DNA from: Rhodocyclaceae bacterium
Lineage (GTDB): Bacteria; Pseudomonadota; Gammaproteobacteria; Burkholderiales; Rhodocyclaceae
DNA: 64,000 nucleotides
Assembly: GCA_016702335.1 (NCBI GenBank)
Contig: JADJEF010000020.1
Location: 1,538,032-1,602,031 of the forward strand
Reading direction: 5' to 3'
The position numbers and the translations under genes are program-made. Below the pieces are notes generated by a model. The model saw only the letters and a list, made by a program, of their open reading frames with translations. It was not told the DNA's origin and searched no databases. How positions within the stretch are numbered: position 1 is the stretch's first letter; each line of letters starts with the position of its first letter. Below are positions 1,790-53,399 of this stretch, piece by piece.

Positions 1790-3613
1790 CTAGCGCGCCG
1801 GCAGCACCAAAGAAAACTCGACCTGCTTGTCGTCACTGAAGCTCAGCGTAATGTCACCACCATGCGCCCGGGCAATCTCGCGCGCTAGCGCCAGCCCGAG
1901 GCCGACGCCTTCGACCGTACGGCTGTGCGCCGCATCGGCGCGGAAAAAGCGCTCGAACAGTTTTTTGCGCTGCGTGGCCGAGATGCCGGCCGAGGCATTG
2001 CTCACTTTCACCTCGACGCGCTGCGACCAGTGCAGCAGCGTGATGCGCACCCACCCGTCCGGGAGGTTGTACTTGATGGCATTGCTGATCAGGTTGTGCA
2101 GCACCTGGCGCAGCATAGTGCCATCGGCCTGAATCACAATGCCGGGGGCGATATTGCCATCGACAGTGAGGTGGGGTGCCAGCATGCGCGTGTCTTCGAT
2201 CAGATCGTCGAGTGCCTCCGAAAGATTGAAACTCTCGCGCAGCAGACTCATGTGCCCGGCATCGGCTTGCGAGAGCAGCATCAGCTTGCGTGAAATGCCT
2301 GACAGCCGGCGCACCTCGTCGAGAATGCCGGACAACTGCGCCTGCAGCGGTGAGCCATCGTCGGCACTCTGGATCGCCCGCTCCAGCTGGCCTTGCAGGA
2401 TGGCCAGCGGCGTTTTCAGCTCATGGGCGGCATCGGCGGAAAAGCGCTGCGATTGCTTGAAACTGCGCTCCAGCCGTTCGAGCATGCGGTTAAAAACCTC
2501 GATCAGTTCGCCAAACTCTTCGTCTTCGTCCTGTGTGGCGATGCGTTGATCCAGGCCCTCTGCGGTGACCTTGCGTGCGGCGAAGGTCAGTTTGCGCAGC
2601 GGTTTGAGTGCTCGGCTGGCGACCACCCAACTGGCGACGCCGATCAGCACTAACGCGAAGGGCAAGGCCAACAGAAAGGCATTGCGCATGCTGCGCATGT
2701 CGTCGGCAATCACCTGCGCATTGACGGCAATAGCCACGCGTCCGTTGTCAGTCACGCCGAGGCCAATGCGCCATTCCTGACCATCGACTACGCGTACCAA
2801 TTGTGCGGTGGCAGGCGGAACGCGGCGCGGCGGCGGAAGGGATTCGAGGGGCGGTGGCGGCAAACCGGTGCCGGGTGGTGGGCGTAGCTCCTCACTGGCT
2901 GTCGCCCCACTGTCGGCAGTGACCGGAGTGGCGGGCTCGCCCGGGCTCGTCGATGGCGGCGGGAGTGGCGGCTGAAGCGGCGGCGCAGAAAATACGGGTT
3001 CGGAGGTGCTGCTGGCAGGGCTAGGTGGCGGTAGTCTGAGCGCCATGCCTGCCGGGGGCGGAGCGCTCTCACCGTTGGCGTTGCTTGCAACACCACGCGG
3101 TGGCTGATTGCCGGCACGCGGCGGCGGGAATGGACCACCGATCCCCGCAGGACCACCGGGACCACCGGGACCACCGGGGCCACCCATGCCCGGGCGCGGG
3201 CGACCGCCACCAGGTGGTTCCTGTGCGTGGGCCGAGGCAAACAGCCAGCTACCACTATCCACCACCGGTGCCACGCCCGGCACTGGCCAGGGCAGTGCGT
3301 CACTATCAAGCCCGGCGGGCCAATGCGGCGAACGGTACACGGTATCGCCGCTTTCATCCTGCACCAGCAGCACCAGATCGGTGGGGTTCTTGACCCCGAT
3401 CGCCGTGGTCATGCGCCCGAGCGGTCGCTGCCAGTCGATGACTTCAACGAACCGGGTGACCTCGCGCTCGGCATGAGTCCTCACCTCACTGTCAATGCGT
3501 TCGAGTTTGATCGAGCGCACCAGCCACCACGTACCACCGCCAAAGGCGATCAGCACCAGGCCCGAAAGCAGTGCACTCAACAGCGCAATGCGCAGGCGGA
3601 AGGAGCGGGTCAT
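1790..3613 (-). CDS. two-component sensor histidine kinase with long Pro/Gly-rich periplasmic low-complexity region
   Basis: N-terminal TM, then a second TM and HAMP-like segment. H-box HELKTPLAILQGQLE. HATPase_c motifs (NLISNAIKY, GVGLGLAL). Overlaps the response regulator gene by 4 bp. Confidence 0.85.
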   Translation of the reverse strand: MTRSFRLRIALLSALLSGLVLIAFGGGTWWLVRSIKLERIDSEVRTHAEREVTRFVEVIDWQRPLGRMTTAIGVKNPTDLVLLVQDESGDTVYRSPHWPAGLDSDALPWPVPGVAPVVDSGSWLFASAHAQEPPGGGRPRPGMGGPGGPGGPGGPAGIGGPFPPPRAGNQPPRGVASNANGESAPPPAGMALRLPPPSPASSTSEPVFSAPPLQPPLPPPSTSPGEPATPVTADSGATASEELRPPPGTGLPPPPLESLPPPRRVPPATAQLVRVVDGQEWRIGLGVTDNGRVAIAVNAQVIADDMRSMRNAFLLALPFALVLIGVASWVVASRALKPLRKLTFAARKVTAEGLDQRIATQDEDEEFGELIEVFNRMLERLERSFKQSQRFSADAAHELKTPLAILQGQLERAIQSADDGSPLQAQLSGILDEVRRLSGISRKLMLLSQADAGHMSLLRESFNLSEALDDLIEDTRMLAPHLTVDGNIAPGIVIQADGTMLRQVLHNLISNAIKYNLPDGWVRITLLHWSQRVEVKVSNASAGISATQRKKLFERFFRADAAHSRTVEGVGLGLALAREIARAHGGDITLSFSDDKQVEFSLVLPAR

Positions 3614-4305
3614 GACGCCTCAGTCAGCTTGCGAAAACGGTAGCCGACACCGCGCACCGCTTCGATGGGCGATTCGCCATCCGCGGCCACGCCAAGCGAG
3701 GCGATCTTTTTGCGGATACGCTGTATGCACACATCGACCACATTGGTGCTCGGGTCGAAGTCGTAACCCCAGACGTGCTCGAGAATCTGCGTGCGCGTGA
3801 ACACCCGGCCGGGCGAGCGCATCAGGTATTCGATAAGGTTGAATTCGCGCCCGGTCAGATCGACCGTCTGACCATGCCAGGTGACTTCGCGGCTGATGCG
3901 ATCCAGGCGCAGTTCGCCCACCGCCAGAATGTTCTGCCGCTCGCCCGAGACGCGGCGCAGCAGCGCCTGCACTCGCGCGATCAGTTCTTCAACGAAGAAG
4001 GGCTTGGCCAGATAGTCGTCCGCCCCGAGTGACAGGCCTTCGACGCGGTCATCAAGCTCATTGCGTGCGGTGAGCAGGATGACCGGTGTGGCATTGCCCG
4101 CCTTGCGCAGGCCCTTGAGGATGGACAGCCCGTCGCGCCCGGGCAGCATGATGTCGAGCACGATCACATCGTAGCTGCCGGTGCTGGCGCGGGCAAAACC
4201 CTCGGTGCCGTCGGCACAGTGCTCGACGACAAAGCCCTGCTCCTTGAAGCCGGCGCATACGAAGTCGGCGATTTTCTTCTCGTCTTCTACCAGCAGCACT
4301 TTCAT
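3610..4305 (-). CDS. OmpR/PhoB-family response regulator
   Basis: Receiver domain (MKVLLVEDE...DVIVLDIMLPGRDG...LTAR) plus winged-helix C-terminus (VWGYDFDPSTNVVDVCIQRIRKKI). 231 aa. Confidence 0.9.
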   Translation of the reverse strand: MKVLLVEDEKKIADFVCAGFKEQGFVVEHCADGTEGFARASTGSYDVIVLDIMLPGRDGLSILKGLRKAGNATPVILLTARNELDDRVEGLSLGADDYLAKPFFVEELIARVQALLRRVSGERQNILAVGELRLDRISREVTWHGQTVDLTGREFNLIEYLMRSPGRVFTRTQILEHVWGYDFDPSTNVVDVCIQRIRKKIASLGVAADGESPIEAVRGVGYRFRKLTEAS

Positions 4306-4472
4306 GGGCGGCCTTCCCGTGTTTTTCCTGCATGGAGATTAGCGCGCGCGGCCGTGCACCGCCAATGACAAATCTGTAATCAAAGCGCGGGGGTAGGCGT
4401 TAGGCGCCGGGTAAATCATTCGCTCCAGCAACGCAACACAACTACACCACATCACACCCAAAGGAGCAGCGC

Positions 4473-4739
4473 ATGACCGCACGACAAGTGGAGTTTCCCA
4501 AGACCGAGGTACTGCAGCGATTGGCGCTCAGTGACAGCGGCTTTGTCTTCGATCCGCTCAGCGGCGCCAGCTACACCGTCAATACCACGGGCATTGCCCT
4601 GCTGCGCCGCCTGCAGCATTACGACGGCGACATTACCCGCCTGGTCGCTGGCCTGCGCACAGAATTCGAGGTCGATGCCGCCGTCGCCGAACAGGACACG
4701 GTGGAGTTTGCCGGCGTACTGCGGAGCTACTTCAAATGA
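4473..4739 (+). CDS. PqqD-family / RRE-like small protein (peptide-chaperone fold)
   Basis: 88 aa. Strong RBS aaaggag precedes the ATG. Sequence pattern (L.RL.LSDSGFVFDPLSG.SYTVN.TG..LL..L...) resembles the PqqD family. Stop overlaps the next start (ATGA). Confidence 0.6.
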   Translation: MTARQVEFPKTEVLQRLALSDSGFVFDPLSGASYTVNTTGIALLRRLQHYDGDITRLVAGLRTEFEVDAAVAEQDTVEFAGVLRSYFK

Positions 4740-5851
4740 ACGCCCTGCCTGTGAGAACAATGCACACTGACCCGATCACCGTCGCTATCACCGGCATGAA
4801 CGCACTGCCGGAAAACCCCGGCCCCGGCCTCGCCGTAGCGCGCTGCCTGCGCGAAGCCTTGGGCGAGGGTGTGCGCATTATCGGCCTGGGCTACGACGCG
4901 CTCGATCCGGGCATGTACCTCGACACCTATACCGATGTCGCCTACCTGCTCTCCTACCCGTTGCATGGCAGCGAGGCATTGCTCGAGCGCTTGCAGGAGA
5001 TTCAGCGCATCGAGCAGATCGACGTGCTGATCCCCTGTCTGGATGCCGAGTTGCCACTGATGGTGGCGTTGGCCGAACAAATTACGGCCATGGGCATTCG
5101 CACTTTTTTGCCCGATGCCACGCAATTGCAACGACGCACCAAGGATCGTCTGCCCGAGCTGTGCAAAACCGCCGCCGTGGGCTGCCCGGAGATACAGCCG
5201 CTCAACAGCGCGGCCTTCTTCTACAGCGGCGAAGCCGAGGGGTGGAGCTACCCGCTGGTGGTCAAGGGGCCTTTTTACGACGCCAAGATTTGTCGCAATG
5301 CCGCCGAGGCCACCGCCGCCTTTTACGCCATTGCCGCTGAATGGGGTTACCCGGTGCTGGCCCAGCGCTTCATTGCCGGCGAGGAATACAACCTCGCCGC
5401 GTTGGGCGACGGCAAGGGCGCCATGCTCGGTGAAGTGATGATGAAAAAGCGCGCGCTGACCGCCAAGGGCAAGGCCTGGGCCGGCATTGCCATCAATGAT
5501 GCGGCGCTCGGCGACTTCGCCCGTCGTCTGGTCGCGGAGCTGAAATGGAAAGGCCCGCTCGAAGTCGAAGTGATGCGCGACGAGCACGGCCAGTACCAGC
5601 TCATCGAGATTAACCCGCGCTTTCCGGCGTGGATCTATCTCTCGCAGGGCGTGGGCCGCAACCTGCCGGCGCTGCTGCTGGATCTGGCGCTCGGACGCAC
5701 GCCCGAAGCACTACCGGCGTCACGCCCGGGCACGATGTTCATCCGCTACGCGCAGGAAACCATTGTCGAGCTCAGCGAGTTCGAAACCATGATGATCAAT
5801 GGCAGCACCGTCAATTTCAACCCGCCCTTCAATCTGGGCAAAGGAGAATAA
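4736..5851 (+). CDS. ATP-grasp domain ligase (amino-acid/peptide ligase-like)
   Basis: 371 aa. ATP-grasp signatures (PLVVKGPFYDAKI..., EYNLAALGDGKG, LIEINPRFPAWIYL). Translationally coupled to the PqqD-like gene. Confidence 0.8.
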   Translation: MNALPVRTMHTDPITVAITGMNALPENPGPGLAVARCLREALGEGVRIIGLGYDALDPGMYLDTYTDVAYLLSYPLHGSEALLERLQEIQRIEQIDVLIPCLDAELPLMVALAEQITAMGIRTFLPDATQLQRRTKDRLPELCKTAAVGCPEIQPLNSAAFFYSGEAEGWSYPLVVKGPFYDAKICRNAAEATAAFYAIAAEWGYPVLAQRFIAGEEYNLAALGDGKGAMLGEVMMKKRALTAKGKAWAGIAINDAALGDFARRLVAELKWKGPLEVEVMRDEHGQYQLIEINPRFPAWIYLSQGVGRNLPALLLDLALGRTPEALPASRPGTMFIRYAQETIVELSEFETMMINGSTVNFNPPFNLGKGE

Positions 5852-5853
5852 AC

Positions 5854-7242
5854 ATGGGACACCTTCACCCCTGGATCAAGCCCGTACTCACCGCCCACCG
5901 CGCCGGTGTCATGAACAAGTTCGGTGCCGTGCGCGCGCAGTTTCATCAGCCCGATGTCGATGGCGTGGACATCACCGGCCTGATCGAAAAGTTCGGCTCG
6001 CCGCTCTACATTCTCTCCGAGAAAACCCTGCGCCAGACCGTGCGCCGGCTCAAGCGCGCCTTTGCCACGCGCTGGCCGCGCGTGCGCCACGGCTGGTCGT
6101 ACAAGACCAACTATCTGGGCGCGGTGTGCACCACCCTGCATCAGGAAGGCTCGTGGGCCGAAGTCGTGTCGGCCTACGAGTACCAGAAGGCACGGGCGCT
6201 GGGCGTGCCCGGCTCGCGCATCATCTTCAACGGCCCGCTGAAAGGCGTCGAGATTCTCGAGCAGGCCATCAATGAAGGGGCCACGCTGCACATCGACCAT
6301 TTCGATGAGCTCTACGCCATCGAGCAGATTGCCCAGCGCCTCGACAAGCAGGTGCCGGTCGGCCTGCGCCTGACCTTCGATACCGGCTACACCGACGCCT
6401 GGAGCCGCTTCGGCTTCCATCTCGAATCGGGCGCGGCCATGGACGCGGTGCAGCGCATCGGCGCCAGCCGCCACCTCAAGCTCACCGGCCTGCACAGCCA
6501 CATTGGCACCTTTGTGCTCGACGTGCGCGCTTATGCCGCGCAAGCCAAGATCATGGCCGGCTTCATGGAGCAGGCCGAACAGGCCATCGGCTGCCGCATC
6601 GAGTATCTCGACATTGGCGGCGGCTTCGCCTCGAAGAACGCGCTGCAGGGCTTGTATCTGCCGCCCGAGCAGGTGGTGCCCAGCTTCGAACAATACGCCG
6701 AAGCCATTACCGGCGCGCTGCTGGAGGCCACGCGTGAGCGGGCAGGCAAGGGCAAGCCGCTGCCCGAGTTAGTGCTGGAAACCGGCCGCGCCGTGGTCGA
6801 TGAAGCGGAAGTGCTGATCACCAGCGTGGTCGGCGGCAAGCGCCTGCCCGATGGGCGGCGCGCCGCGATTCTCGATGCCGGAGTCAATCTGTTGTTCACC
6901 GCCTTCTGGTACAACCACGAGGTGCGCCCGGTGCGCCCGCTCGATGGCATTGCCGAAGACACGGTGCTCTACGGCCCGTTGTGCATGAACATCGATGTGC
7001 TGCGCAGTTCCATCATGCTGCCGCCGCTCAATGTCGGCGAGGCGCTGGTGATCCGTAATGTCGGTGCCTACAACAATACCCAGTGGATGCAGTTCATCCA
7101 GCTGCGCCCGGCCATTGTCATGGTGCGCGAAGATGGCAGTGTCGATCTGATCCGCGACGCCGAGCAGGTGGAAACGCTGAGCAACATGGAGCACCTGCCG
7201 GCGAATCTGCAGCAGCCGTTTCCGAAAGGATTGCCGCAGTGA
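5854..7242 (+). CDS. type-III PLP-dependent decarboxylase (DapDC/ODC fold)
   Basis: RBS aaggaga lies 7 bp upstream of ATG 5854. Motifs GSPLYILSEKTLRQ, RIIFNGPLK, LDIGGGF and GPLCMNID match the diaminopimelate/ornithine decarboxylase family. The in-frame extension from 5629 overlaps the ATP-grasp gene and is rejected. Confidence 0.8.
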   Translation: MGHLHPWIKPVLTAHRAGVMNKFGAVRAQFHQPDVDGVDITGLIEKFGSPLYILSEKTLRQTVRRLKRAFATRWPRVRHGWSYKTNYLGAVCTTLHQEGSWAEVVSAYEYQKARALGVPGSRIIFNGPLKGVEILEQAINEGATLHIDHFDELYAIEQIAQRLDKQVPVGLRLTFDTGYTDAWSRFGFHLESGAAMDAVQRIGASRHLKLTGLHSHIGTFVLDVRAYAAQAKIMAGFMEQAEQAIGCRIEYLDIGGGFASKNALQGLYLPPEQVVPSFEQYAEAITGALLEATRERAGKGKPLPELVLETGRAVVDEAEVLITSVVGGKRLPDGRRAAILDAGVNLLFTAFWYNHEVRPVRPLDGIAEDTVLYGPLCMNIDVLRSSIMLPPLNVGEALVIRNVGAYNNTQWMQFIQLRPAIVMVREDGSVDLIRDAEQVETLSNMEHLPANLQQPFPKGLPQ

Positions 7243-9464
7243 ACAGCAGCACCGCAAGTGCCGGAACCCGCCGCATGCCTGATCATCGCGCAAATCGCCG
7301 TGTTACCAGCGCCGACTTGCGGAATAGCGTAGGCAATCGACTGGAAAGCGCATTTCGCGGCCACTTGGAAAGCGCCTTGCGCGCCTACGCCGGGGTGCTG
7401 TTCTGCACCTCACCCCGGCTGGGCGCCTGGCTGGCGGCGATCACCTGGTGTGCGCCGCGCGCGGCGGCGGCGGGCACGCTAGCGCTGCTGGCGTCCATGC
7501 TCTGGGCACGGCTGTTTTCGCTGGAGAAAAGCGGCGAGGGGCATCTGGTCAACAGCCTGCTGGCCGGGCTGTGCCTCGGTGCCTTTCATGCCTTTGACAG
7601 CGTGCTGGCCGGCTGGCTGTTGGCTGCGTCACTCCTCACTACCCTGCTCACCCACGCGCTGGCCGGCCCGCTCTGGCAGCTGGCGCGCCTGCCGGTGCTC
7701 AGCCTGCCCTTTGTGCTCGGCAGCTGGGCGGTGAGCCTCGGCGCGCATCAGTCCTTTTCCCTGTCGATGACCGGCACTACGCTCAATCACCTCGCCGGGC
7801 CATCGTTCGGCAGTTGGGGCGATGCGTTTTTTACCGCGCTGGGCTGGCTGTTGCTGGTGCCCTACCCGCTGGCGGGTGCACTGATCTTTGCCGGCCTCAT
7901 CGCCGCCTCGCGCTATCTGGCCCTGCTCGCGCTCGCTGGCTATCTGGCCGGCCAGTTGGTAATCGCGCTGCTCGCCCACGGCGATACGCAAGCCACCGGC
8001 TTCAACTTCATGCTCGCCAGCATGGCGCTCGGCGGCACCTTCGCCGTGCCCGGCCGGCTGAGCTTTGCCGTTGCGCTCGGTGGCGGCGCGCTGGCCGCGG
8101 CGCTGGTCCTGATGCTCGCGGCACCCCTGGGCGCACAGGGCTTGAGTCTGCTCACCCTGCCCTTCATTCTTGCGGTGTATTTGTGGCTGGCAGCGCTGGG
8201 CAGTCGCGTGCACTCCGGCTCGCTGCAGCTACGTCTGGCACACCCCGGCGACCCGGAAAGCGCCTTCGCCGCCGAGCGGCTGGGGCGGGCGCGCGGTCTC
8301 GCCGGCGACAGCATCGACAGCATTCCGCTGGCCGTACCCTTCTATGGCGAATGGCAGGTCACGCAGGGCTTCGATGGCGAGCACACGCATCAGGCATCGT
8401 GGCAGCATGCGCTGGATTTTGAAATCTTCGCAGACGATGCGCCCGGCAGCGGCAACGGCGATGCCCGCGAGGACTATTTCTGCTTTGGCGCGCCTGTGCT
8501 GGCACCTGCCGCCGGCACCGTGGTCGCCACCGTCGATCACCTGCCCGACTGCCGGCCCGGCGAGGCGGATCTGGCCAACAACTGGGGCAACCATGTACTG
8601 ATCCGCACCGCCGGCGGTGTGTACGTGCTACTTGCGCATCTGCGCCAACACAGCCTCTGCGTCCAGCCCGGTGCCTGGGTGACGGTAGGCGAGCGCATCG
8701 CCGCCTGCGGCAGCTCGGGCCGCTCGCCGGTGCCGCACCTGCATCTGCAGGTGCAAAGCACCGCCGCGCTGGGCAGCCCGACCCTGCCCTTTCATCTGGT
8801 CAATGTCATCGTGCGCCAGGCTGATGCAGAGAGCGAGTTTCGCCTCTGTCATCGCCCCACGCAGGGCGAAGCGATTGCCGGCGTGCAGCGCGACGAGGTA
8901 CTGGCACAGGCCATGGTGCCGACCGTGGGCATGGCCACACACTACCGCTTACCTTCTGGCGGGCAAGCCAGTCTGCGCGCCGAGTTGACCCTGCTCGGGC
9001 AGGCTCGTCTGCACTGTGACAACGGCACTCAACATGCCTCCTGTGCCTTTGACGGACAGGGGGCGAGCCTGGCCGCCTATGATCGGCAGGGGCCGCGCAG
9101 CCCGCTGCTCGATACCTGGCTGCTCGCCCTGGGCCTGAGTGCTCTGAGCAGCGCGGCACAGAGCTGGCGCGATGCCCCGGCACTTGAGCTGTGGCCGCTG
9201 GCACCCTGGCAACGCGCCCTGGTCGCCCTGCTCTATCCGCTGGGCGCGGCCGGACGCAGCCACTACCAGCGCCACTGGGATCTCGCCGAGCAATGCTGGC
9301 GCATTGACGGTACGCATCACTTCACTCTGTTGCCCGGACTACGCGCCCTGCACTGGCAGGCGACCACCCACGCCTGGGTCGCCCCCGGCCAAGGCGTTCG
9401 GCGCCTGCACGTAAGCATGGACGATCGCTGCTGGTTGGCACACCTCGAATCACCCACCCACTAA
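7239..9464 (+). CDS. polytopic membrane domain (urea-transporter-like) fused to C-terminal M23 (LytM-type) metallopeptidase
   Basis: About 8-10 hydrophobic helices in the N-terminal roughly 350 aa. C-terminal M23 motifs HQASWQHALDF (HxxxD) and HLHLQV (HxH). Start is GTG 7239 overlapping the upstream stop, or ATG 7275. A copy of the dispersed repeat lies in the 5' end. Confidence 0.7.
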   Translation: MNSSTASAGTRRMPDHRANRRVTSADLRNSVGNRLESAFRGHLESALRAYAGVLFCTSPRLGAWLAAITWCAPRAAAAGTLALLASMLWARLFSLEKSGEGHLVNSLLAGLCLGAFHAFDSVLAGWLLAASLLTTLLTHALAGPLWQLARLPVLSLPFVLGSWAVSLGAHQSFSLSMTGTTLNHLAGPSFGSWGDAFFTALGWLLLVPYPLAGALIFAGLIAASRYLALLALAGYLAGQLVIALLAHGDTQATGFNFMLASMALGGTFAVPGRLSFAVALGGGALAAALVLMLAAPLGAQGLSLLTLPFILAVYLWLAALGSRVHSGSLQLRLAHPGDPESAFAAERLGRARGLAGDSIDSIPLAVPFYGEWQVTQGFDGEHTHQASWQHALDFEIFADDAPGSGNGDAREDYFCFGAPVLAPAAGTVVATVDHLPDCRPGEADLANNWGNHVLIRTAGGVYVLLAHLRQHSLCVQPGAWVTVGERIAACGSSGRSPVPHLHLQVQSTAALGSPTLPFHLVNVIVRQADAESEFRLCHRPTQGEAIAGVQRDEVLAQAMVPTVGMATHYRLPSGGQASLRAELTLLGQARLHCDNGTQHASCAFDGQGASLAAYDRQGPRSPLLDTWLLALGLSALSSAAQSWRDAPALELWPLAPWQRALVALLYPLGAAGRSHYQRHWDLAEQCWRIDGTHHFTLLPGLRALHWQATTHAWVAPGQGVRRLHVSMDDRCWLAHLESPTH
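7291..7325 (+). repeat. dispersed element copy 1 (gcaaatCGCCGTgttaCCAGCGCCGACTTGCGGaat)
   Basis: Read directly from the sequence. Lies in the 5' end of the M23-fusion gene, just downstream of the decarboxylase stop. Confidence 0.85.
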
Positions 9465-9476
9465 ACGGAGAATCTC

Positions 9477-10091
9477 ATGAAACTCAAGCTCAATGCCCTG
9501 CTCGTCGTTGCATCAATCACCTTTGCCGGTTCCTCGGCGTTTGCCCAAGCAAGTTCGTGGAAGGACTCGTACGGGCACGAGAGCGGCGGTCGCTACGCGC
9601 AAGCCGCAGAAGCCATGGAGCAGGTGCTGCGCGAAGCGCCAGGGCACAGTTTTGCCCTGATGCGCCGCGGCTGGCTCAACTACCTGCAGGGCCGCCATGC
9701 CGAGGCGCTGCGCGACTATGACAACGTGCTCTTGCGCAACCCTAATGCACTGGAAGCGCGCCTGGGGATCACCTTGCCGCTGATGGCGCAAAAACGTTGG
9801 CCCGAAGCCGCCGCCGAGGCGCGCAAGGTGCTGGCCGTGAATGCCTGGGACTACACCGCGCACACGCGTCTGCTGGCCTGCGAAGAAGCCGAGCGGCAGT
9901 GGGACGAACTGGCCCGGCACGCCAATGCCCTGGCCGTGCGCTACCCCTCGGATGCCACGGTGCTGGTGTATCTGGCCCGCGCCGAATTGGCGCGCGGCAA
10001 CGCGAAGGGCGCGCGCAGCGCCTACGCGCAGGTGCTCGAGCGCGCCCCGACGAATGCCGAGGCCTTGGGCTATTTCAGCAAAAGCACCTAG
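9477..10091 (+). CDS. secreted TPR-repeat protein
   Basis: Signal peptide MKLKLNALLVVASITFAGSSAFA. TPR-like repeats (ALMRRGWLNYLQGRHAEALRDYDNVL...). RBS ggagaa. Lies 12 bp after the M23 gene. Confidence 0.7.
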   Translation: MKLKLNALLVVASITFAGSSAFAQASSWKDSYGHESGGRYAQAAEAMEQVLREAPGHSFALMRRGWLNYLQGRHAEALRDYDNVLLRNPNALEARLGITLPLMAQKRWPEAAAEARKVLAVNAWDYTAHTRLLACEEAERQWDELARHANALAVRYPSDATVLVYLARAELARGNAKGARSAYAQVLERAPTNAEALGYFSKST

Positions 10092-10197
10092 CCCCGAAAC
10101 TGCCGGACAGCCTCGACCTCAGAATCACTTCAACCATAGTCTGGTGCGGACTAAGGTTCGAGCTCAGGCAGTCGGGATTGCAGCGAAAGCCTATGCG

Positions 10198-10770
10198 CTA
10201 CCGACGGAACATTGGCAACGGATTGAGCGGGTGTCTGAACAGCCATTTTGTACCAAGCCGCAACAGCTGCATGTGAAATCCGGCGTTGGGGAACGCCGCT
10301 TTGGTCTGGGCAATTAAAGCGGCAGGAATTCCAATTGCCACCACGCCAAGGGAAAAGTCAGCGATGTCAGCACGACGGAAAGCCTCGACGAGAGCAAATG
10401 AGGAGTCCTTGCATGAGCAGATGCAATGATGCATTGCGATCATTTCGGTGATCTCCGCATTCCAGGCCCCCAGTCCTTTCTCATTCAGGTACCTGGATGC
10501 CTCCGACTCTGAAGGAGGCAAATAGTCCAATGTGCCAGCTGTCCAGATGCCGATGTCATGGAAGCAGCCCGCGAGTTGGATTTTCTCTTTCTCTATGGCG
10601 GAGAACTGACCGAGAGAGAAGCACAGATTGATGACTCGGTAGACGTGATTTCGATAGGCATCGAAGTCGCCACCGATACACGCTTTGTACTCACTGAGAA
10701 TCTCTTCAATCAGCGGCAACTGCTTTTCAATAGTCATTAGCACAGTCCATTCTTTGGTCGGTGGGTTCAC
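10198..10770 (-). CDS. HD-domain phosphohydrolase-like protein, in a lower-GC segment
   Basis: CFHDIGIW (HD motif). About 190 aa. Local GC is visibly lower than the surroundings. The start is uncertain (10770 or 10737). Confidence 0.55.
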   Translation of the reverse strand: MNPPTKEWTVLMTIEKQLPLIEEILSEYKACIGGDFDAYRNHVYRVINLCFSLGQFSAIEKEKIQLAGCFHDIGIWTAGTLDYLPPSESEASRYLNEKGLGAWNAEITEMIAMHHCICSCKDSSFALVEAFRRADIADFSLGVVAIGIPAALIAQTKAAFPNAGFHMQLLRLGTKWLFRHPLNPLPMFRR

Positions 10771-10861
10771 TGATCAAGTGAAAAAGTGAAATGTGATGAT
10801 GATGCCGTCTGAAGTGAAAAGTGTCAGCAGAGAAACGCCCACGGTCCTCTTCCGAAGGATC

Positions 10862-11275
10862 TCACGCGGTAAGCTGACGCTTGACATCCCCCATGTCGAA
10901 ATGCGCGCGCTTCTCGACAATCTTCCCATCCTTGATCGTCAGCATGTGCAGTAAAGAAATGCGGATATCCCTTCCGGTCGGCGGGATGCCCAAGGACTCG
11001 GCGCAATGGTTCTTGCCCTCGAAATACATGTACGCGGCGACCTTGTCGCCTTCGGCAATCAACGTGACGACAGGAAACTGGAAGCTTTCAAACGCCTCGA
11101 ACGACTTTTTCTCCGATTCGACCAAACCGGCAACGCCCGGGAAGGGCGTGTCGACCTGAGGGTAAAAAACGAAATCCTCATGCACCATGTTGCTCAGCGC
11201 GTCGAACTCCAATCGCTCGATGGCCTCATAAAAACGCTTCACCAATTCCTTGTTCGCTTCAATCGACATTTTCAT
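10862..11275 (-). CDS. SnoaL-like / NTF2-fold ester cyclase family protein
   Basis: 137 aa beginning MKMSIEANKELVKRFYEAIE. RBS aaggaga upstream. The longer ORF extending to 11620 is rejected. Lower GC. Confidence 0.65.
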   Translation of the reverse strand: MKMSIEANKELVKRFYEAIERLEFDALSNMVHEDFVFYPQVDTPFPGVAGLVESEKKSFEAFESFQFPVVTLIAEGDKVAAYMYFEGKNHCAESLGIPPTGRDIRISLLHMLTIKDGKIVEKRAHFDMGDVKRQLTA

Positions 11276-11312
11276 TCTCCTTGTGGGGTATTCGCCTGAG
11301 TCAGGCCGCGAT

Positions 11313-12239
11313 TCAGAAGCGATAGCTCTGGCCGTCGTTGGGCACCAGCACGCGCCGCTTATCCAGCTTCTGCTCATCGATGAAGGCGCGCAGTTCCTGG
11401 CGCGTGAGCATGGCGTGATTGACCGATTCCATGTGCACGCCGACGATGCTTGCCTTGGGTGAGAAGCGGTAGGCGCGCGCCACATCGTCCTTGCCCATGA
11501 TGATGGAGCCATCGAAGCCGCTGATCTGCGCGTAGCCAGTGTTGAGGAACACCACATCGGGTTGATAAGCGGCAAGCGCGTCTTCAACATTCTGGTTCCA
11601 GACCGTGTCGCCGGCGACATAGGCGGTGGGATGATTCGGGCGCTGGAACACGATGCCCATCACGTCGCCGAGCAGCTCGGCCACCTGGGGCACGGCAAAG
11701 AAATGGTTGCTGCCGTGCTTGCCCAGCGTTTTGATCAGGCGGGTGCCCTTGAACTCAAGGCCCGCTTCCGTCAGTACGCGCACATCGCTGAAGCCATCTT
11801 CGCGTACCTTGGCCGCGTCCTTTTCGTCCTGGGTGAAGATGGTCATTTCGCGCGGCACCAGAAAGCGCGCGACGGGGTCCCAGTGGTCCTCGTGAATGTG
11901 ACTCAGGATGATCGCGTCGGTTTTGAGCACCTCGGTAATCGGCACCGGCAAATTGACCAGCGGGTTGCGTAGCTCGCTGCGCGGCGTGCCCTCAAAGCCT
12001 TTGTAGGCACCTTTGACGGCCAGCATGGGGTCGATCAGAAAAGTGGTGCCGGCATAGGTAAGTTTCATTGTGGCATTGCGGATCAACTGGAAGCCCACCT
12101 GCTTGGACGCCGCCTTCGCCTTGCCAGGGTGGGCGTGGCCGGTTTCATGCGCTTGAACCGTGCCGACGGTGCCGGCGGCGGCGAGCAGCAAGGCGCACAT
12201 CAGGCCGCAGGTAGTGCGCAATAGCGTGGTTGATTTCAT
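11313..12239 (-). CDS. secreted MBL-fold metallo-hydrolase
   Basis: Signal peptide MKSTTLLRTTCGLMCALLLAAAG. MBL motifs (HIHEDHWD). The upstream in-frame extension is rejected. Confidence 0.75.
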   Translation of the reverse strand: MKSTTLLRTTCGLMCALLLAAAGTVGTVQAHETGHAHPGKAKAASKQVGFQLIRNATMKLTYAGTTFLIDPMLAVKGAYKGFEGTPRSELRNPLVNLPVPITEVLKTDAIILSHIHEDHWDPVARFLVPREMTIFTQDEKDAAKVREDGFSDVRVLTEAGLEFKGTRLIKTLGKHGSNHFFAVPQVAELLGDVMGIVFQRPNHPTAYVAGDTVWNQNVEDALAAYQPDVVFLNTGYAQISGFDGSIIMGKDDVARAYRFSPKASIVGVHMESVNHAMLTRQELRAFIDEQKLDKRRVLVPNDGQSYRF

Positions 12240-12398
12240 TTTGTTTTTTCCTTTTCGTGAGGTGGGGAAAATGGAGCCGAGGGGTCTCGGTGAAGCGGTG
12301 ATCGAATTTTCACCAAAGGATGAAAATCTCACCATTGGCCCGAATGACTATCAGCGATACAATCGGGCCATAGTGCTTGCTCTGCATTGGGAGGTGTC

Positions 12399-13388
12399 AT
12401 GCAGCCCGTCCGTGTCGCAGTCCTCGCCTTCGAAGGCGTCAGCCTGTTTCATCTCTCGGTGCCCGGCATTGTGTTCGGCGTCGAGCCCAGGCCAAGCGGC
12501 CTGCCACCGTACGACGTGCGCTATTGCACGCCCACACCCGGCCGCGTCCGCAGTGATCAGGGGATTGAGATCGAAGTGCCCGACGGCCTGGAACTAATGA
12601 CCAGGGCCGACATCGTCGTCGTCCCGGCCTGGAGTCACCCGGAGCACAGCGCTCCGCTGGCCTTGACCAAGGCGCTGCAAAAAGCCCATGCCCGTGGTGC
12701 GCAGGTGGTCGGCTTGTGTCTGGGTGCTTTCGTGCTGGGCGATGCGGGTCTGCTCGATGGGCACCGCGCGACCACCCATTGGGCCGCCCGTGAGCTTTTC
12801 GCCCGGCGCTTTCCCAAGGCCGACTACCACCCCCACGTGCTGTATGTCGACGACGGCAATGTCATTACGTCGGCCGGGACCGTCGCCGCGATCGATTGCT
12901 GCCTGAACCTCATCCGCCAACGCCACGGGGCCGATGTGGCCAATCGCGTCGCGCGAATGCTGGTGACGCCGCCGCACCGCCAGGGCGGACAAGCGCAATA
13001 CATCGAACAGCCCGTGCCCATCCTGCCCAGCGAGAGCCGCCTGCCGAACGTGCTGGACTGGGCGCGGGAACATCTGTCCGAGCCACTGTCTGTGGATACG
13101 CTGGCCGACATCGCGCGTATGAGTCGACGCACCTTTACCCGACGTTTTCGTGAAGCTACCGGCACGACCGTGATCAAGTGGCTGGCCCTGGCGCGTATCG
13201 CAAGAGCGCAGCAATTACTGGAGACAACGGATATGCCGATTGAGCGGGTGGCGGCAGAAGTAGGCTTTGGGTCAGCGCTGTCGCTGCGCCAATATTTTTC
13301 GGGCCAGGTGGGTACTTCGCCGTCGTTGTATCGGCGGACCTTCCGCGATGGTCGGCGGGGAACCGGTGAGTCTCAACGTCCGACTTGA
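12399..13388 (+). CDS. GlxA-family transcriptional regulator (DJ-1/PfpI domain + AraC HTH)
   Basis: RBS gggagg precedes the ATG. DJ-1-like N-terminus (VAVLAFEGVSLFHLSVP). C-terminal AraC HTH (RRFREATGTTVIKWLALARIARAQQLL). Divergent from the MBL hydrolase gene. Confidence 0.8.
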   Translation: MQPVRVAVLAFEGVSLFHLSVPGIVFGVEPRPSGLPPYDVRYCTPTPGRVRSDQGIEIEVPDGLELMTRADIVVVPAWSHPEHSAPLALTKALQKAHARGAQVVGLCLGAFVLGDAGLLDGHRATTHWAARELFARRFPKADYHPHVLYVDDGNVITSAGTVAAIDCCLNLIRQRHGADVANRVARMLVTPPHRQGGQAQYIEQPVPILPSESRLPNVLDWAREHLSEPLSVDTLADIARMSRRTFTRRFREATGTTVIKWLALARIARAQQLLETTDMPIERVAAEVGFGSALSLRQYFSGQVGTSPSLYRRTFRDGRRGTGESQRPT

Positions 13389-13518
13389 TCTGCATGCCAG
13401 GATCTGCCATGTGGCCGGTCGCACCCACACAGCGATACGTCAGTAAGCACAAGTCGGCAAACAAAGCTGTTGCTGCCGCAAGCCTTGCGGATTAGCCGAT
13501 ATTGCATTCAATATCAGT

Positions 13519-15185: not shown

Positions 15186-15881
15186 TCAGCCAGCGCTCCC
15201 CACGTGCACCAGCTCATCGCGCCACTGATCCCAGGTCACGCCTTTGCCCGTGGTATCGCGGTAGTCATGGCGCACCGAGCGGCCTACGCTCGGCGCATAC
15301 CAATAGGTTTCGCTGATGCGGCCCTGCCAGCGATAGCGGCCATCGGTCGCCTCGTAGCGCCCCTCGTGCTCGATGCGCAGCGCCTCGAAACGTCCGGCCG
15401 GCGTGCTCACCGCTTCGTAGCCAACGACACGCGCGGTCTGGTTCACGCTGACCGGGTTCTTGCCCGCGTAGTCATAGCGAAACGACCACGACTGCCCGAT
15501 GACGAGCGGAAAGCGCAGCGGCTCGTAGCGTCCGCGCAGCTTGGCGTCGGCAAAGGCCTGCGTGGCCGCTTCCATCTGCTCGTCGGTCACACTGCCCTGA
15601 CGCGTACTGTCCTCGGAGGATTCGATGGTCCAACGCACCGTCCATTGGCCCTGCTGCTCGGACACCAGCTGTTGGGAAAAGCGTTCGATCTCCTGGTTGC
15701 GCCACTGGTCAATACGCCGGTAGGTCAGGATTTGCCCGGCACGCAGCGTCGGCAAGGCGGCGAGATTGGCGGCCTGGGCGGTGGTGAGCTTCGGCTTGCT
15801 CGGCGCGTTGCGTGTGGGTGGCGCGGCGCACCCCGTGGCCAGACTCAGGAAGGTCAGTGACAGAAAAAAGTGCTTGCTCAT
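15186..15881 (-). CDS. hypothetical lipoprotein
   Basis: Lipobox (LSLATGC) after MSKHFFLSLTF. 232 aa. Sits 15 bp downstream of the DUF1566 gene. Confidence 0.55.
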   Translation of the reverse strand: MSKHFFLSLTFLSLATGCAAPPTRNAPSKPKLTTAQAANLAALPTLRAGQILTYRRIDQWRNQEIERFSQQLVSEQQGQWTVRWTIESSEDSTRQGSVTDEQMEAATQAFADAKLRGRYEPLRFPLVIGQSWSFRYDYAGKNPVSVNQTARVVGYEAVSTPAGRFEALRIEHEGRYEATDGRYRWQGRISETYWYAPSVGRSVRHDYRDTTGKGVTWDQWRDELVHVGSAG

Positions 15882-15895
15882 GGTCGTTCGCTGGC

Positions 15896-17131
15896 TCACT
15901 TCACCTCCCGCACCAGACGCACCAGGTTGGCCATGCGCCGCACATCGCCCTGCGGCCCCATGCCAGTGGGGTAGTCGGCAGCATTTCCCACTTTGGGGTC
16001 GCTGCGTTGTGCGCCGGCGCCATGCACGTCAATGAGCGTCGGCTGGGTGCCGGAGCGGGGAAAGCGCATGAAGCCAAGCGCGTCACCAAAGGCCACATAA
16101 ACCGCCGCGCTGCCGGGACGGGCGCCGTCGAAGTGCGAGGTACTGCTCCAGTAGAAGCCGTAGTTGCTCTGCCCGCCTTCATCGACGATGGCTGTGGCCT
16201 TGAACAGCGGATCGATGGCGGCACTGCCCGTGGTCTGCGGCGAGCGCTGGTAGTCGACGATGCTTTGCAGCTCCTTGGCATTGGGCAGGCGCCAGTCGGT
16301 GTGGCCGGCATAGCTCAGCCCTTGCGCCCACGCCAGGGCCTGGGGCCAATCCATGCGCCCGTCACGGCTCGGCCCGGCCTTGAGATGGCCGCTGTCTTCC
16401 TGCATCCACATCAGGCCGGTGGCGTGATCAGTGAGGGTGCCATCACCATTGGCGCGAAACTGGTTTTGCCCATAGCGGCTGTCGCCGCGGACATAACGCA
16501 CAAACAGTCGTTGCTCGCCGCCGCCGGGTTTGACGCTCGGGTAGGCCTTGATCCGGCCATCGGCGAAATTGACCCCGAAGATCATGTCGCGGCGGTTCAT
16601 GGCGCGGCCGACGTACGGCGTTGCGCTCCAGAACTGCACGTCGATCGGACGCTCGCCCGCGCTGGCGTCGCCATAGCGGAAGGAGAACAGCGGCGACAAA
16701 AACGCCTTGCCCGAGCGCCCCGGCATGGGCGTGCTGCCGGAAAAATCCATCAGCGAGTACAGCTCCTTGAGGGTGGGCAGACGCCAGTCGGTGTGGCCGG
16801 CCAGCGCCAGCGCCGCGGCACCGTCACCAGCGCCGGCACGCGCCTGCGCCCAGGTCACTTTGGCCGGCAGGACCTGCTGCCACATCAGGCCTGTGGTCAG
16901 GTCGCTCACCGTGCCATCGCCGTTGTCGCGATAACGCAGCTCCTGCGTGGCAAAAGCCGCATCTTGCCCGGCCAGGGGACCAACGCGTGCGCGGCAGGCC
17001 ATAACGGCGCCGGTGGTGTTGTGGCAAGTACGCTGGCCGGTGGGGGCCACGGGGTAAGAGCGTTCCACCGCGCCGGCCAGCGCGCTGAAAAATACCGCTA
17101 CGAGCGCCAGAGGCCAATGAATCGTGGGCAT
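15896..17131 (-). CDS. secreted DUF1566 (Lcl C-terminal-like) domain protein, two repeats
   Basis: Signal peptide MPTIHWPLALVAVFFSALAGA. Two copies of the HTDWRLP(T/N)xKEL motif. Confidence 0.65.
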   Translation of the reverse strand: MPTIHWPLALVAVFFSALAGAVERSYPVAPTGQRTCHNTTGAVMACRARVGPLAGQDAAFATQELRYRDNGDGTVSDLTTGLMWQQVLPAKVTWAQARAGAGDGAAALALAGHTDWRLPTLKELYSLMDFSGSTPMPGRSGKAFLSPLFSFRYGDASAGERPIDVQFWSATPYVGRAMNRRDMIFGVNFADGRIKAYPSVKPGGGEQRLFVRYVRGDSRYGQNQFRANGDGTLTDHATGLMWMQEDSGHLKAGPSRDGRMDWPQALAWAQGLSYAGHTDWRLPNAKELQSIVDYQRSPQTTGSAAIDPLFKATAIVDEGGQSNYGFYWSSTSHFDGARPGSAAVYVAFGDALGFMRFPRSGTQPTLIDVHGAGAQRSDPKVGNAADYPTGMGPQGDVRRMANLVRLVREVK

Positions 17132-17236
17132 GATGTGCACCTTGGAGAGTGTCGTGAAAGCGTGTGTGGCGATGGCCACAACGACATTCTTGTCCCCGCA
17201 GATGTCGGGGCAGCGCACCTGCGCATTACAGAGTTG

Positions 17237-30693: not shown

Positions 30694-30884
30694 GACGGTT
30701 CGTGGTGTTCCGAGGATTCCATTCGGTCAGGCTCGGCATTCAAAAAGGCAAGCATTTCTCGCCGCTGGCCCTGTTGCGTCAGCCATTGACGCATCTCACA
30801 CAGACGCGCAAATTCGGCAGCCCCAAAGCGAGCGCTGCAATAGCAGAACAACTCGGCTGCGCTCGCTTTTTTGCGTGCCGTCAT
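30690..30884 (-). CDS. small hypothetical protein (64 aa), translationally coupled to the giant gene
   Basis: Start lies 6 bp after the flotillin stop. Its stop overlaps the giant gene start (ATGA). No homology recognised. Confidence 0.35.
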   Translation of the reverse strand: MTARKKASAAELFCYCSARFGAAEFARLCEMRQWLTQQGQRREMLAFLNAEPDRMESSEHHEPS

Positions 30885-30889
30885 TGCGA

Positions 30890-36995: not shown

Positions 36996-37067
36996 TCGAC
37001 ACCCACTGATTCCTCCACGTGCGCGCCGCGCACCGTGGCCGTATTCCCTGTCGATTGGAAGAATTTC

Positions 37068-40901: not shown

Positions 40902-41272
40902 TGCAGCAAGCCCGGCGCGCCCGGTGCAACGCCAGCGCCAGCCGCTGGCTGCTGGCGCTCGGACTGCTGGTGATACTGATGCAGGCCACGGCGCGGTGGC
41001 CGCAGGCACGCACCGTGTCGCTGCAGATGACGCAGGTATGCACCGCGCACGGCATGGTGTCGGTAGTGCTGCCGGGTCCACCGGCACAGAGCGCGCCGGG
41101 CGCGCACGAGTGCTGTCGCGACTGTGTGCTGAACACCCCCGCGCCCCCGGCGCTGCACGCAATCGCCGTCCCGCCAGCGCCGACTTGGGGGCTTTTATCC
41201 AGCGCGGTCAGTACATCGATCACGCCGCCCCGCTACCTGCGCCACCCGGCGCGCGCGCCGCCGCACGCCTGA
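40901..41272 (+). CDS. DUF2946-like protein (paralog 3)
   Basis: Start overlaps the upstream stop (TGATG). HECCRDC motif. C-terminal IAVPPAPTWG...PPRYLRHPARAPP tail. Confidence 0.55.
   Translation: MQQARRARCNASASRWLLALGLLVILMQATARWPQARTVSLQMTQVCTAHGMVSVVLPGPPAQSAPGAHECCRDCVLNTPAPPALHAIAVPPAPTWGLLSSAVSTSITPPRYLRHPARAPPHA
41164..41190 (+). repeat. dispersed element copy 7
   Basis: CGCCGTcccgCCAGCGCCGACTTGGGG. In-frame in DUF2946 paralog 3 (IAVPPAPTWG). Confidence 0.85.
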
Positions 41273-41394
41273 GCCTTTTCCGGCCTTTTGGCTGTCCTGT
41301 TGTCTGCTCTGTGCGCGCACCGCGCGGTGCGTATGCATACGCGTATCCGCCTGCCGGCGGCGCTCCCCTGATCTTTTTCGGAAAGTCTTCTGTC

Positions 41395-53256: not shown

Positions 53257-53399
53257 GGTTACACCAATATACCCATCGAAGCACTATTACGCAACTCATG
53301 AATACCTGATTGCGTCGAATATCAACCCCTGCCAGCCAGCCCCCGCAGTCCTTTCTGCCGCCAGCCAGCCTTGAACACTTGCTCCCGGAAAGGAATGCC

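Follow-up and report, generated by a model that had tools for sequence, protein, structure and literature searches.

A conserved and undescribed gene cassette combining a PqqD-family protein, an ATP-grasp ligase, a FigC-like decarboxylase and a urea-transporter-fold protein fused to an M23 peptidase

Five genes in a stretch of 64,000 nucleotides from a Rhodocyclaceae bacterium (contig JADJEF010000020.1; hereafter, the window) form a tightly packed operon at positions 4473-10091 that encodes a small PqqD-family protein, an ATP-grasp ligase, a pyridoxal phosphate (PLP)-dependent decarboxylase, a membrane protein in which a urea-transporter-fold (UT) channel domain is fused to an M23 peptidase domain, and a TPR protein. 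Comparison of this locus with its relatives across bacteria indicates that the cassette is real, strongly conserved and undescribed, with known domain families brought together in a new arrangement. We tentatively suggest that it specifies a conserved pathway to a small, amine-terminated amide conjugate, released at the inner-membrane channel; we regard this reading as possible rather than probable.

The conservation of the cassette was assessed by scanning one genome per species, which yielded at least 595 loci; the best 80 of these (designated by L numbers) were used for neighbourhood analysis, in which the window proteins were searched by tblastn and the denominators count loci with enough flanking DNA. 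The decarboxylase gene lies directly 3' of the ligase gene in 69 of 69 loci with room for it, and an M23-bearing gene follows downstream in 63 of 65, one exception having it divergently upstream. The PqqD gene was detected directly 5' of the ligase gene in 70 of 79 loci, and two of the nine remaining loci that were inspected by eye (L034 and L073) carry divergent PqqD-like open reading frames (ORFs). The gene order recurs at 80 of the 80 loci, which span many phyla, and is thus far above the chance expectation. Beyond this core, clustering of ORFs of at least 90 amino acids (aa) at the 80 loci recovered no universally conserved gene. These results partly support an earlier note on this DNA, made from the sequence alone, which had proposed an uncharacterised peptide- or amine-conjugating pathway: the cassette is uncharacterised and co-conserved, with enzymes for amide formation and decarboxylation, and the outcomes that the note had listed as fatal to this proposal (a described pathway, genes that are not co-conserved, a small protein failing the PqqD models) were not observed.

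The cassette is widely distributed. Homologues of the ligase number more than 3271 at E<=1e-10, the best 120 of which share 59-77% identity with it and bear generic names only, and thousands of metagenomic proteins also represent the cassette. The lineages involved include Beta-, Gamma-, Alpha-, Zeta- and Deltaproteobacteria, Nitrospirota, Acidobacteriota and Melainabacteria. Among the hosts of the best 80 loci, all of which are diderms, are Methylococcaceae, Gallionella, Rhodocyclales, Accumulibacter, Halieaceae, Reyranella, Magnetospirillum, Mariprofundaceae and other Zetaproteobacteria, Magnetococcales, Desulfobulbaceae, Myxococcales, Nitrospirota, Solibacteraceae, one Bacteroidetes bin and many Obscuribacterales (Melainabacteria). 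No name or curated family matches the cassette as a whole, and a full-text literature search found no publication describing this domain combination, with the caveat that about 1.4 million author manuscripts could not be searched, so that an earlier mention in a comparative-genomics study is possible. Two specific identities were considered and rejected: the paper on the zetaproteobacterial stalk-formation (sfz) cluster names none of these domains, and none of the five proteins matched a PADLOC model of anti-phage defence at E<=0.01.

The five genes (4473-4739, 4736-5851, 5854-7242, 7239-9464 and 9477-10091, all on the + strand) are arranged as the earlier note had described, and the junctions were read directly. 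An AAGGAG sequence precedes the ATG of the PqqD gene at 4473. The first two genes overlap by ATGA (4736-4739), the ligase stop codon (5849-5851) is separated by 2 bp from the ATG of the decarboxylase gene (5854), a GTG at 7239 overlaps the TGA of the decarboxylase gene (7240-7242), and 12 bp lie between the end of the fourth gene (9464) and the ATG of the fifth (9477). The start of the fourth gene is ambiguous: the JGI annotation gives 741 aa from GTG 7239, and that of NCBI (MBK6636540.1, labelled 'urea transporter' in GenBank) gives 729 aa from ATG 7275, which would leave a gap of 32 bp. An AAGGA sequence is located 8 nt 5' of GTG 7239, and we favour this coupled start because in L081, the nearest relative, each of the four operon junctions is a 4-nt overlap. 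In some relatives, repeat-like or palindromic DNA of 170-320 bp splits the ligase and decarboxylase genes (L003:10062-10378, L005:10065-10320, L042:3223-3415), disrupting the tight coupling present in the window. The profile searches that the earlier note had advised assign all five proteins to Pfam families above the curated thresholds (PqqD, ATP-grasp, PLP decarboxylase, UT plus M23, and TPR).

The decarboxylase (462 aa; 5854-7242, +) is a PLP-dependent enzyme of the alanine-racemase fold, scoring 115.7 bits with Orn_Arg_deC_N and 50.8 bits with Orn_DAP_Arg_deC. Its best match in the PDB is 7kh2, the N-citrylornithine decarboxylase FigC/FslC, at 200 bits, versus 123 bits for the best diaminopimelate (DAP) decarboxylase and about 84 bits for BtrK (7ru7, 2j66). 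Eight residues (K84, T349, W352, Y353, C377, M378, I380 and Q410) are invariant in 70 orthologues, and residue-level alignment to FigC identifies K84 as the PLP lysine and C377 as the catalytic cysteine, which M378 adjoins. In ornithine, arginine and DAP decarboxylases (ODC, ADC and DAPDC, respectively), an Asp beside the catalytic Cys binds the free distal amine of the substrate, whereas FigC has Met at this position, the distal nitrogen being acylated (PMC7857480). The specificity helix, represented by T349, W352 and Y353, contains neither the ODC-type Asp nor the DAPDC-type Arg. With Met in place of Asp beside the Cys and no charged residue on this helix, the enzyme has the features of the FigC-like subfamily that acts on acylated substrates. 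It lacks those of the DAP decarboxylases, namely, the helix Arg and the Cys-adjacent Asp, and scores 212.5 bits with the lysA model TIGR01048 (cutoff 297.9). The FslC/FigC model NF041039 likewise stays below its cutoff (226 vs 500 bits), and the citrate-binding residues are also absent: the FigC citrate ligands H357, R387 and N389 align with I380, Q410 and M/L412, of which the last alone varies among the 70 orthologues. From this pocket, we infer that the substrate is a diamino or acidic amino acid joined via its side chain to a non-citrate group that would be neutral or hydrophobic, and might be a peptide. Because the invariant FigC-like pocket implies such a side-chain-acylated, non-citrate substrate, ligation probably precedes decarboxylation, so that the sequence of events envisaged in the earlier note, in which an amine produced by decarboxylation is then ligated, is probably reversed.

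The ATP-grasp ligase (371 aa; 4736-5851, +) matches ATPgrasp_Ter at 36 bits (cutoff 29.1) and ATP-grasp_3 at 23.5 bits; with PRK12767-type models it scores 80 bits, far under the cutoffs, as is also the case for the curated NCBIfam models. The nearest solved structure, at 40 bits, is 2pn1, a structural-genomics protein of unknown function. The ATP-grasp core residues, such as K177, E276, E278 and the E291-I-N293-P-R295 segment, are invariant in 18 diverse orthologues. Judging by residue conservation, the ligase, the decarboxylase and the M23 domain are all likely to be catalytically competent.

The small protein encoded by the first gene (88 aa; 4473-4739, +), which the earlier note had called similar to PqqD and to the recognition element (RRE) of peptides that are ribosomally synthesized and then post-translationally modified (RiPPs), is a genuine member of the PqqD family, with 37.2 bits for PF05402 (cutoff 23.4); its orthologues carry the label 'PqqD family protein'. 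The best-scoring curated model is TIGR04353, the PqqD chaperone of the HPr-rel-A system, at 34.5 bits, just under the cutoff of 35, and a broader PqqD search returned close orthologues only. The core of the protein, L-x-L/I-S-x-x-G-F-x-F-D-P-x-x-G-x-S-F/Y-x-V-N, is strongly conserved, as is the face of the beta-sheet. No precursor with a leader that the PqqD protein might bind was recognisable at the 80 loci or in the window. Clustering of 2030 small ORFs from these loci and the window (20-129 aa, with less than 40% overlap with ORFs of 130 aa or more, within about 9 kb) returned the PqqD family and antisense shadows only, and no conserved mini-ORF of 12 aa or more was seen by eye 5' of the PqqD gene, in agreement with the earlier note, which had recognised no precursor peptide. 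The gaps of 170-320 bp between the ligase and decarboxylase genes at some loci were also considered as a hiding place for a precursor, and rejected, being unrelated repeat-like DNA with no shared ORF.

In 14 of the 80 loci (L035, L017, L018, L019, L026, L033, L044, L045, L075, L009, L030, L050, L040 and L053), PqqD is not a stand-alone protein as in the window but the C-terminal third of an ORF of about 265 aa, with no intervening stop codon and often without an internal Met. The N-terminal part passes the TetR_N model in two of the 14, L035 (Mariprofundus sp. EBB-1) and L053; in L035, a single ORF (1857-2648) scores 28.9 bits with TetR_N and 26.9 bits with PqqD. The two parts are connected by a conserved LPWE linker. 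The hosts of these fusions are nine of nine Zetaproteobacteria, three gammaproteobacterial bins, one Magnetococcales bin and one Desulfobulbaceae bin. The fusion is consistent with the PqqD domain binding a diffusible ligand or a peptide, and suggests that such binding serves regulation as well as catalysis. A riboswitch 5' of the zetaproteobacterial PqqD was rejected as an explanation of the 400 conserved nucleotides, which are coding and specify the TetR domain in frame with PqqD; Rfam searches of seven loci and of positions 3500-11000 of the window gave no match.

The fourth gene (7239-9464, +) encodes a three-domain inner-membrane protein of 741 aa (or 729 aa with the alternative start), for which an AlphaFold2 model built from 38 sequences had a pLDDT of 88 and a pTM of 0.84. 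The earlier note had correctly recognised a membrane domain and an M23 domain in this protein and overlooked a third domain, residues 538-741. The UT and M23 domains (114.5 bits for PF03253 and 51.2 bits for PF01551) are both present in 120 of 120 homologues among the matches listed. The UT domain comprises residues 44-319 (7368-8195), and in Foldseek searches residues ~45-321 superpose on the Desulfovibrio vulgaris urea transporter dvUT (3k3f, 3me1) and on mammalian UT-B with a TM-score of ~0.8. Both the fold and the motifs are those of the UT family: the NxxL and LPxx(S/T)LPF motifs occur in both halves, and the pore elements N105, L108, LPVLS155LPF, F255-N256, L259 and LLT306LPF are kept. 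The protein scores only 65 bits with the urea_trans_yut equivalog model (cutoff 274.6), and no urease or urea-metabolism genes are co-conserved among the neighbour families of the 80 loci.

The M23 (LytM-type) zinc metallopeptidase domain occupies residues ~360-537 (8316-8849), with fold matches to ShyA, DipM, Csd1/2, LytM and lysostaphin. Both the fold and the zinc-binding and catalytic residues are in place: D393, H467, H500 and H502 are invariant and H390 is at least 90% conserved in 38 orthologues, the first motif being H-A-L-D, which is shorter by one residue than the usual HxxxD and has an insert of 22 residues after it. UT-B has both its termini inside the cell and the loop between its repeats outside. 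The protein has no signal peptide and no hydrophobic segment after residue ~325, and there are nine Arg residues in positions 1-48 and five in 322-352, with no Lys or Arg in the central loop 170-195. Because a complete UT fold precedes the M23 domain, no membrane segment follows and the flanks are rich in Arg, the domain is predicted to be cytoplasmic, and this topology departs from the periplasmic or extracellular location of M23 enzymes that act on peptidoglycan. The prediction argues against the peptidoglycan of the sacculus as the target, and the action on peptidoglycan considered in the earlier note is accordingly unlikely. The third, family-specific domain (8850-9464) is a beta-barrel that resembles carriers of hydrophobic ligands and is found only in this fusion, in no other architecture.

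The fifth gene (9477-10091, +) encodes a 204-aa protein that matches several TPR families in Pfam and has sub-threshold matches to PrsT, BcsC and PgaA models. Its description in the earlier note as a secreted TPR protein holds for the repeats; secretion is suggested by an N-terminal signal-like sequence, MKLKLNALLVVASITFAGSSAFA/Q, read by eye. A TPR homologue accompanies the core in 29 of the 54 loci that extend far enough downstream; its usual place is downstream of the fusion gene, and at some loci it lies upstream of the PqqD gene. Between the fusion gene and the TPR gene, 27-28 of the 80 loci encode a signal-peptide protein of ~300 aa that ends in Trp (L035:7398-8300, L003:14002-14910, L053:12110-13009, L084:4881-5885 and ~23 other loci). 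Even at E<=5 it matches no Pfam family, and its sequence features make it a probable outer-membrane beta-barrel whose family is undescribed. The loci of Melainabacteria lack both the TPR and the barrel genes. Downstream of the cluster in L081 (12805-14088), as well as in L042, lies a gene for a signal-peptide protein of 427 aa that weakly matches Metal_resist/LTXXQ (CpxP/Spy-like).

Divergently from the operon, the window encodes an OmpR-type response regulator (231 aa; 3610-4305, -; Response_reg and Trans_reg_C domains) and, overlapping it by 4 nt, a sensor histidine kinase (607 aa; 1790-3613, -; HAMP-HisKA-HATPase_c, with a large N-terminal region without a Pfam match). The 167-bp distance between the starts of the regulator (4305) and of PqqD (4473), given in the earlier note, was confirmed. 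A histidine kinase and a response regulator adjoin the cluster in about half of the loci. Kinase orthologues with 50-54% identity lie beside it in L002-L005 and L081; the response regulators of L002, L003 and L005 share 82-86% identity with that of the window and occupy its divergent position, the L004 copy (85%) is upstream on the operon strand, and L081 has the divergent layout of the window. The pair is divergent and upstream in close betaproteobacterial relatives, whereas in Accumulibacter and Obscuribacterales it is encoded downstream on the operon strand. The divergent promoter region contains an inverted repeat, TGACA-N4-TGTAA (4366-4379), that aligns with a perfect repeat (TTACA-N4-TGTAA) in L081 and L002 and may be an operator. 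Regulation of the operon by this two-component system, as the earlier note had supposed, is plausible and would be lineage-specific, other lineages having the downstream kinase-regulator pair or the TetR-PqqD fusion.

Taken together, these features can be accommodated in a pathway in which the PqqD-type protein would bind a peptide or ligand and so serve the ATP-grasp ligase as its adaptor. The ligase would use ATP to join a carboxylate to an amine, yielding a product that keeps a free alpha-amino-acid head group, either a diamino acid of the Orn/Lys/DAP type attached via its side-chain amine, or Glu or Asp attached via the side-chain carboxylate. The FigC-like decarboxylase would then strip CO2 from the head group, generating a terminal primary amine. 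At the mouth of the UT channel, the cytoplasmic M23 peptidase would cut the conjugate with the help of the beta-barrel domain, which might hold it, and the small polar product would cross the inner membrane through the UT-type channel. The periplasmic TPR protein and, in many relatives, the outer-membrane barrel would handle an onward step. Expression would be controlled by the neighbouring two-component system or, in the 14 loci with the fusion, by the TetR domain joined to PqqD. As a precedent, the use of RRE machinery to build small molecules on scaffold peptides has been described (PMC13622209). Gene content and order, conservation, folds, and catalytic and pocket residues are observations, and the substrates, the reaction order, the topology and the direction of transport are deduced from them.

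A more specific version, which we consider doubtful, holds that a handle recognised by PqqD, either a peptide or a protein, carries the small amine-bearing molecule during its assembly, and that the cytoplasmic M23 peptidase built into the channel frees the molecule and passes it through the inner membrane. The cassette would then represent a hitherto unrecognised, phylum-spanning class of pathways, and in some lineages the TetR-fused PqqD would report substrate availability to the promoter.

Several observations weigh against release of a conjugate at the channel. No substrate, carrier or precursor was identified, no conserved small ORF being present within ~9 kb at the 80 loci. The urea-type pore is narrow, and even a small conjugate may not pass through it; furthermore, dvUT F80 aligns with V104, a position that is variable across the family. 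The topology is a prediction, and the periplasm is where M23 domains and LolA-like barrels are normally found. Rather than a peptide, the partner bound by the PqqD domain could be the enzyme or DNA. Finally, tblastn found no homologue of the ~300-aa barrel in the window, and the absence of the TPR and barrel genes from Melainabacterial loci means that outer-membrane export is not universal.

Each of the alternatives explains some of these features at the expense of others. The cassette might encode a true RiPP pathway with the precursor located elsewhere, in which PqqD binds the leader, the ATP-grasp enzyme either introduces an amide at a side chain or attaches an amino acid, the decarboxylase trims what was added, M23 is the leader peptidase and the product is a peptide. 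The genuine PqqD membership and the highly conserved beta-sheet face fit this possibility, as does the presence of a peptidase on a membrane protein, which recalls peptidase-containing exporters, and there are other clusters whose scaffold or precursor genes had escaped notice (PMC13622209). We nevertheless find it unlikely: no small ORF is conserved in the 80 loci despite 48-77% identity of the enzymes, the decarboxylase fold requires a free alpha-amino acid group (PMC7857480), a peptide would be far too wide for the UT-fold pore, and the conserved neighbour families include no ABC or MFS exporter. Modification of peptidoglycan or the envelope, with the ligase and the decarboxylase altering the precursor stem peptide (at meso-DAP or an added residue) and M23 trimming precursor or sacculus peptides, appears improbable. 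In its favour, the typical M23 enzyme is an endopeptidase of peptidoglycan, it is the free end of meso-DAP on which the DAP-decarboxylase fold acts, peptidoglycan precursors are substrates of ATP-grasp ligases such as D-Asp ligase, and the TPR and barrel partners would reside in the envelope of hosts that are all diderms. This scenario, however, is at odds with the predicted cytoplasmic M23 domain and with a decarboxylase pocket that lacks the DAPDC Arg and Asp and falls short in the lysA model, finds no co-conserved mur, pbp or flippase genes at the 80 loci, and leaves the UT domain without a role.

UT channels are passive and bidirectional, and traffic might also run inward: the outer-membrane barrel and the UT channel would admit a small amide or ureido compound, the cytoplasmic M23 domain would hydrolyse it, and the ligase and the decarboxylase would convert the pieces. 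The size of the ~300-aa barrel matches that of substrate-specific porins, and the TetR-PqqD fusion and the sensor kinases would suit substrate-induced expression. Uptake and salvage seem no less improbable than envelope modification, given that an ATP-consuming ligase followed by a decarboxylase follows a biosynthetic logic, that the barrel is absent from Melainabacterial loci and from the window, and that the characterised close relatives of the decarboxylase are all biosynthetic (PMC7857480). Synthesis of a secreted polyamide, with iterative action of the ATP-grasp enzyme as in cyanophycin or poly-Glu synthesis and exit through a module of TPR and beta-barrel proteins like PgaA, BcsC or AlgK-AlgE, is very improbable. 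It draws on the matches of the TPR protein to the PrsT, BcsC and PgaA models, which are generic and far under the cutoffs, and on the adjacency of the barrel and TPR genes in 27 loci, although these genes are dispensable in several lineages; in addition, an inner-membrane translocase for a polymer is lacking, and no polymer could pass through the UT pore.

The surroundings of the operon include genes of diverse functions. Farther upstream of the two-component genes, Pfam identifies coaE and zapD, and the DNA is therefore chromosomal. After the TPR gene, a stretch of low GC content (10100-13500; 0.53-0.54 vs 0.62-0.68 in the operon) looks like an insertion that terminates the operon, and genes at ~10.2-14 kb encode HD-domain, SnoaL-like, metallo-beta-lactamase-fold, AraC/DJ-1 and PIN proteins. 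Some 5 kb away, on the opposite strand, lies a pair of genes (15186-15899, - and 15896-17218, -) for a DUF3108-like lipoprotein and a protein with an Lcl_C domain; the lipoprotein is 44% identical to the product of the gene directly 3' of the TPR gene in L081, L002, L007 and L010, and its gene may once have been part of the cluster neighbourhood. Unrelated to the operon, a 1759-aa DUF3686/DUF7902/AAA ATPase is encoded beside a 740-aa SPFH (Band 7) protein at 25414-33112 (-). Three TonB-dependent receptors and a CobN/Mg-chelatase-family protein (37035-39203, 40924-43593, 53310-55619 and 55621-59694, +) indicate metal or corrinoid uptake loci, for which no link to the operon was seen.

The hosts of the cassette include iron oxidisers (Gallionella, Mariprofundus), methanotrophs, Accumulibacter, magnetotactic bacteria, Nitrospirota and non-photosynthetic Melainabacteria, and solving its function would probably uncover a new, widespread metabolite. 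It would also reveal the role of a cytoplasmic M23 peptidase on a urea-type channel, test whether PqqD/RRE domains function when the cluster encodes no precursor, and whether they serve TetR proteins as sensor modules, and correct a systematic misannotation, the parts being automatically labelled 'urea transporter', 'carbamoyl-phosphate synthase large subunit' and 'PqqD family protein'.

Among known systems, those whose cassettes the earlier note had set aside (lasso peptides, PQQ, mycofactocin and graspetides) indeed differ, their defining enzymes being absent from the conserved neighbours. The radical-SAM/SPASM partner (PqqE/MftC) and the PqqA/MftA precursor of the PQQ and mycofactocin pathways are not co-conserved; no graspetide precursor was found beside the ATP-grasp gene, and the best models for the ligase are ATPgrasp_Ter and PRK12767, not graspetide synthetases. 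Lasso B1/B2/C systems, like the operon, combine a peptidase and an enzyme for ATP-dependent amide formation with a PqqD-type RRE that stands alone, but the Asn-synthetase-like cyclase, the transglutaminase-type B2 and the precursor are absent from the five proteins and the conserved neighbours, and the decarboxylase and the UT domain are foreign to lasso clusters. The HPr-rel-A system differs in its HprK-related kinases and other parts, which are not co-conserved here; a precursor is not known for that system either.

The chemistry that we favour, ligation followed by decarboxylation, has precedents in FigA/FigC (FslA/FslC) of Francisella rhizoferrin biosynthesis and in SbnH of staphyloferrin B biosynthesis (PMC7857480), where, as in our model, a ligase acylates the side-chain amine of a diamino acid and an alanine-racemase-fold decarboxylase then removes the alpha-carboxylate. 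FigC and the operon enzyme have in common the Cys-Met pair and the T/Y residues of the specificity helix. However, FigA/FigC systems employ an IucA/IucC-type NRPS-independent siderophore (NIS) synthetase and a major facilitator superfamily (MFS) exporter where the operon has an ATP-grasp enzyme and no MFS exporter, and they have no counterparts of the PqqD protein, the UT-M23 fusion or the TPR protein. The butirosin BtrI-BtrJ-BtrK set resembles the operon in combining a partner of ~90 aa, an ATP-grasp ligase and a DAPDC-fold PLP decarboxylase, and BtrK acts on an amino acid held by its side chain on the partner, although BtrK is more distant from the operon decarboxylase than FigC is. The butirosin partner is an acyl carrier protein, whereas that of the operon has a PqqD fold with no PP-binding match, and no phosphopantetheinyl chemistry is implied.

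With respect to transport, dvUT and UT-B share the whole fold and most of the pore-lining motifs with the channel of the fusion; they lack its ~420 extra residues, the M23 and barrel domains predicted to be cytoplasmic, and the fusion has not kept dvUT F80. As a working analogy only, peptidase-containing ATP-binding cassette (ABC) transporters (PCATs) also couple a cytoplasmic peptidase to a membrane conduit for the cleaved product, with a C39 peptidase and an ABC transporter in place of the M23 domain and the passive UT-fold channel, which would need a much smaller cargo. A handle-dependent pathway, if true, would be the passive-channel counterpart of these peptidase-containing exporters.

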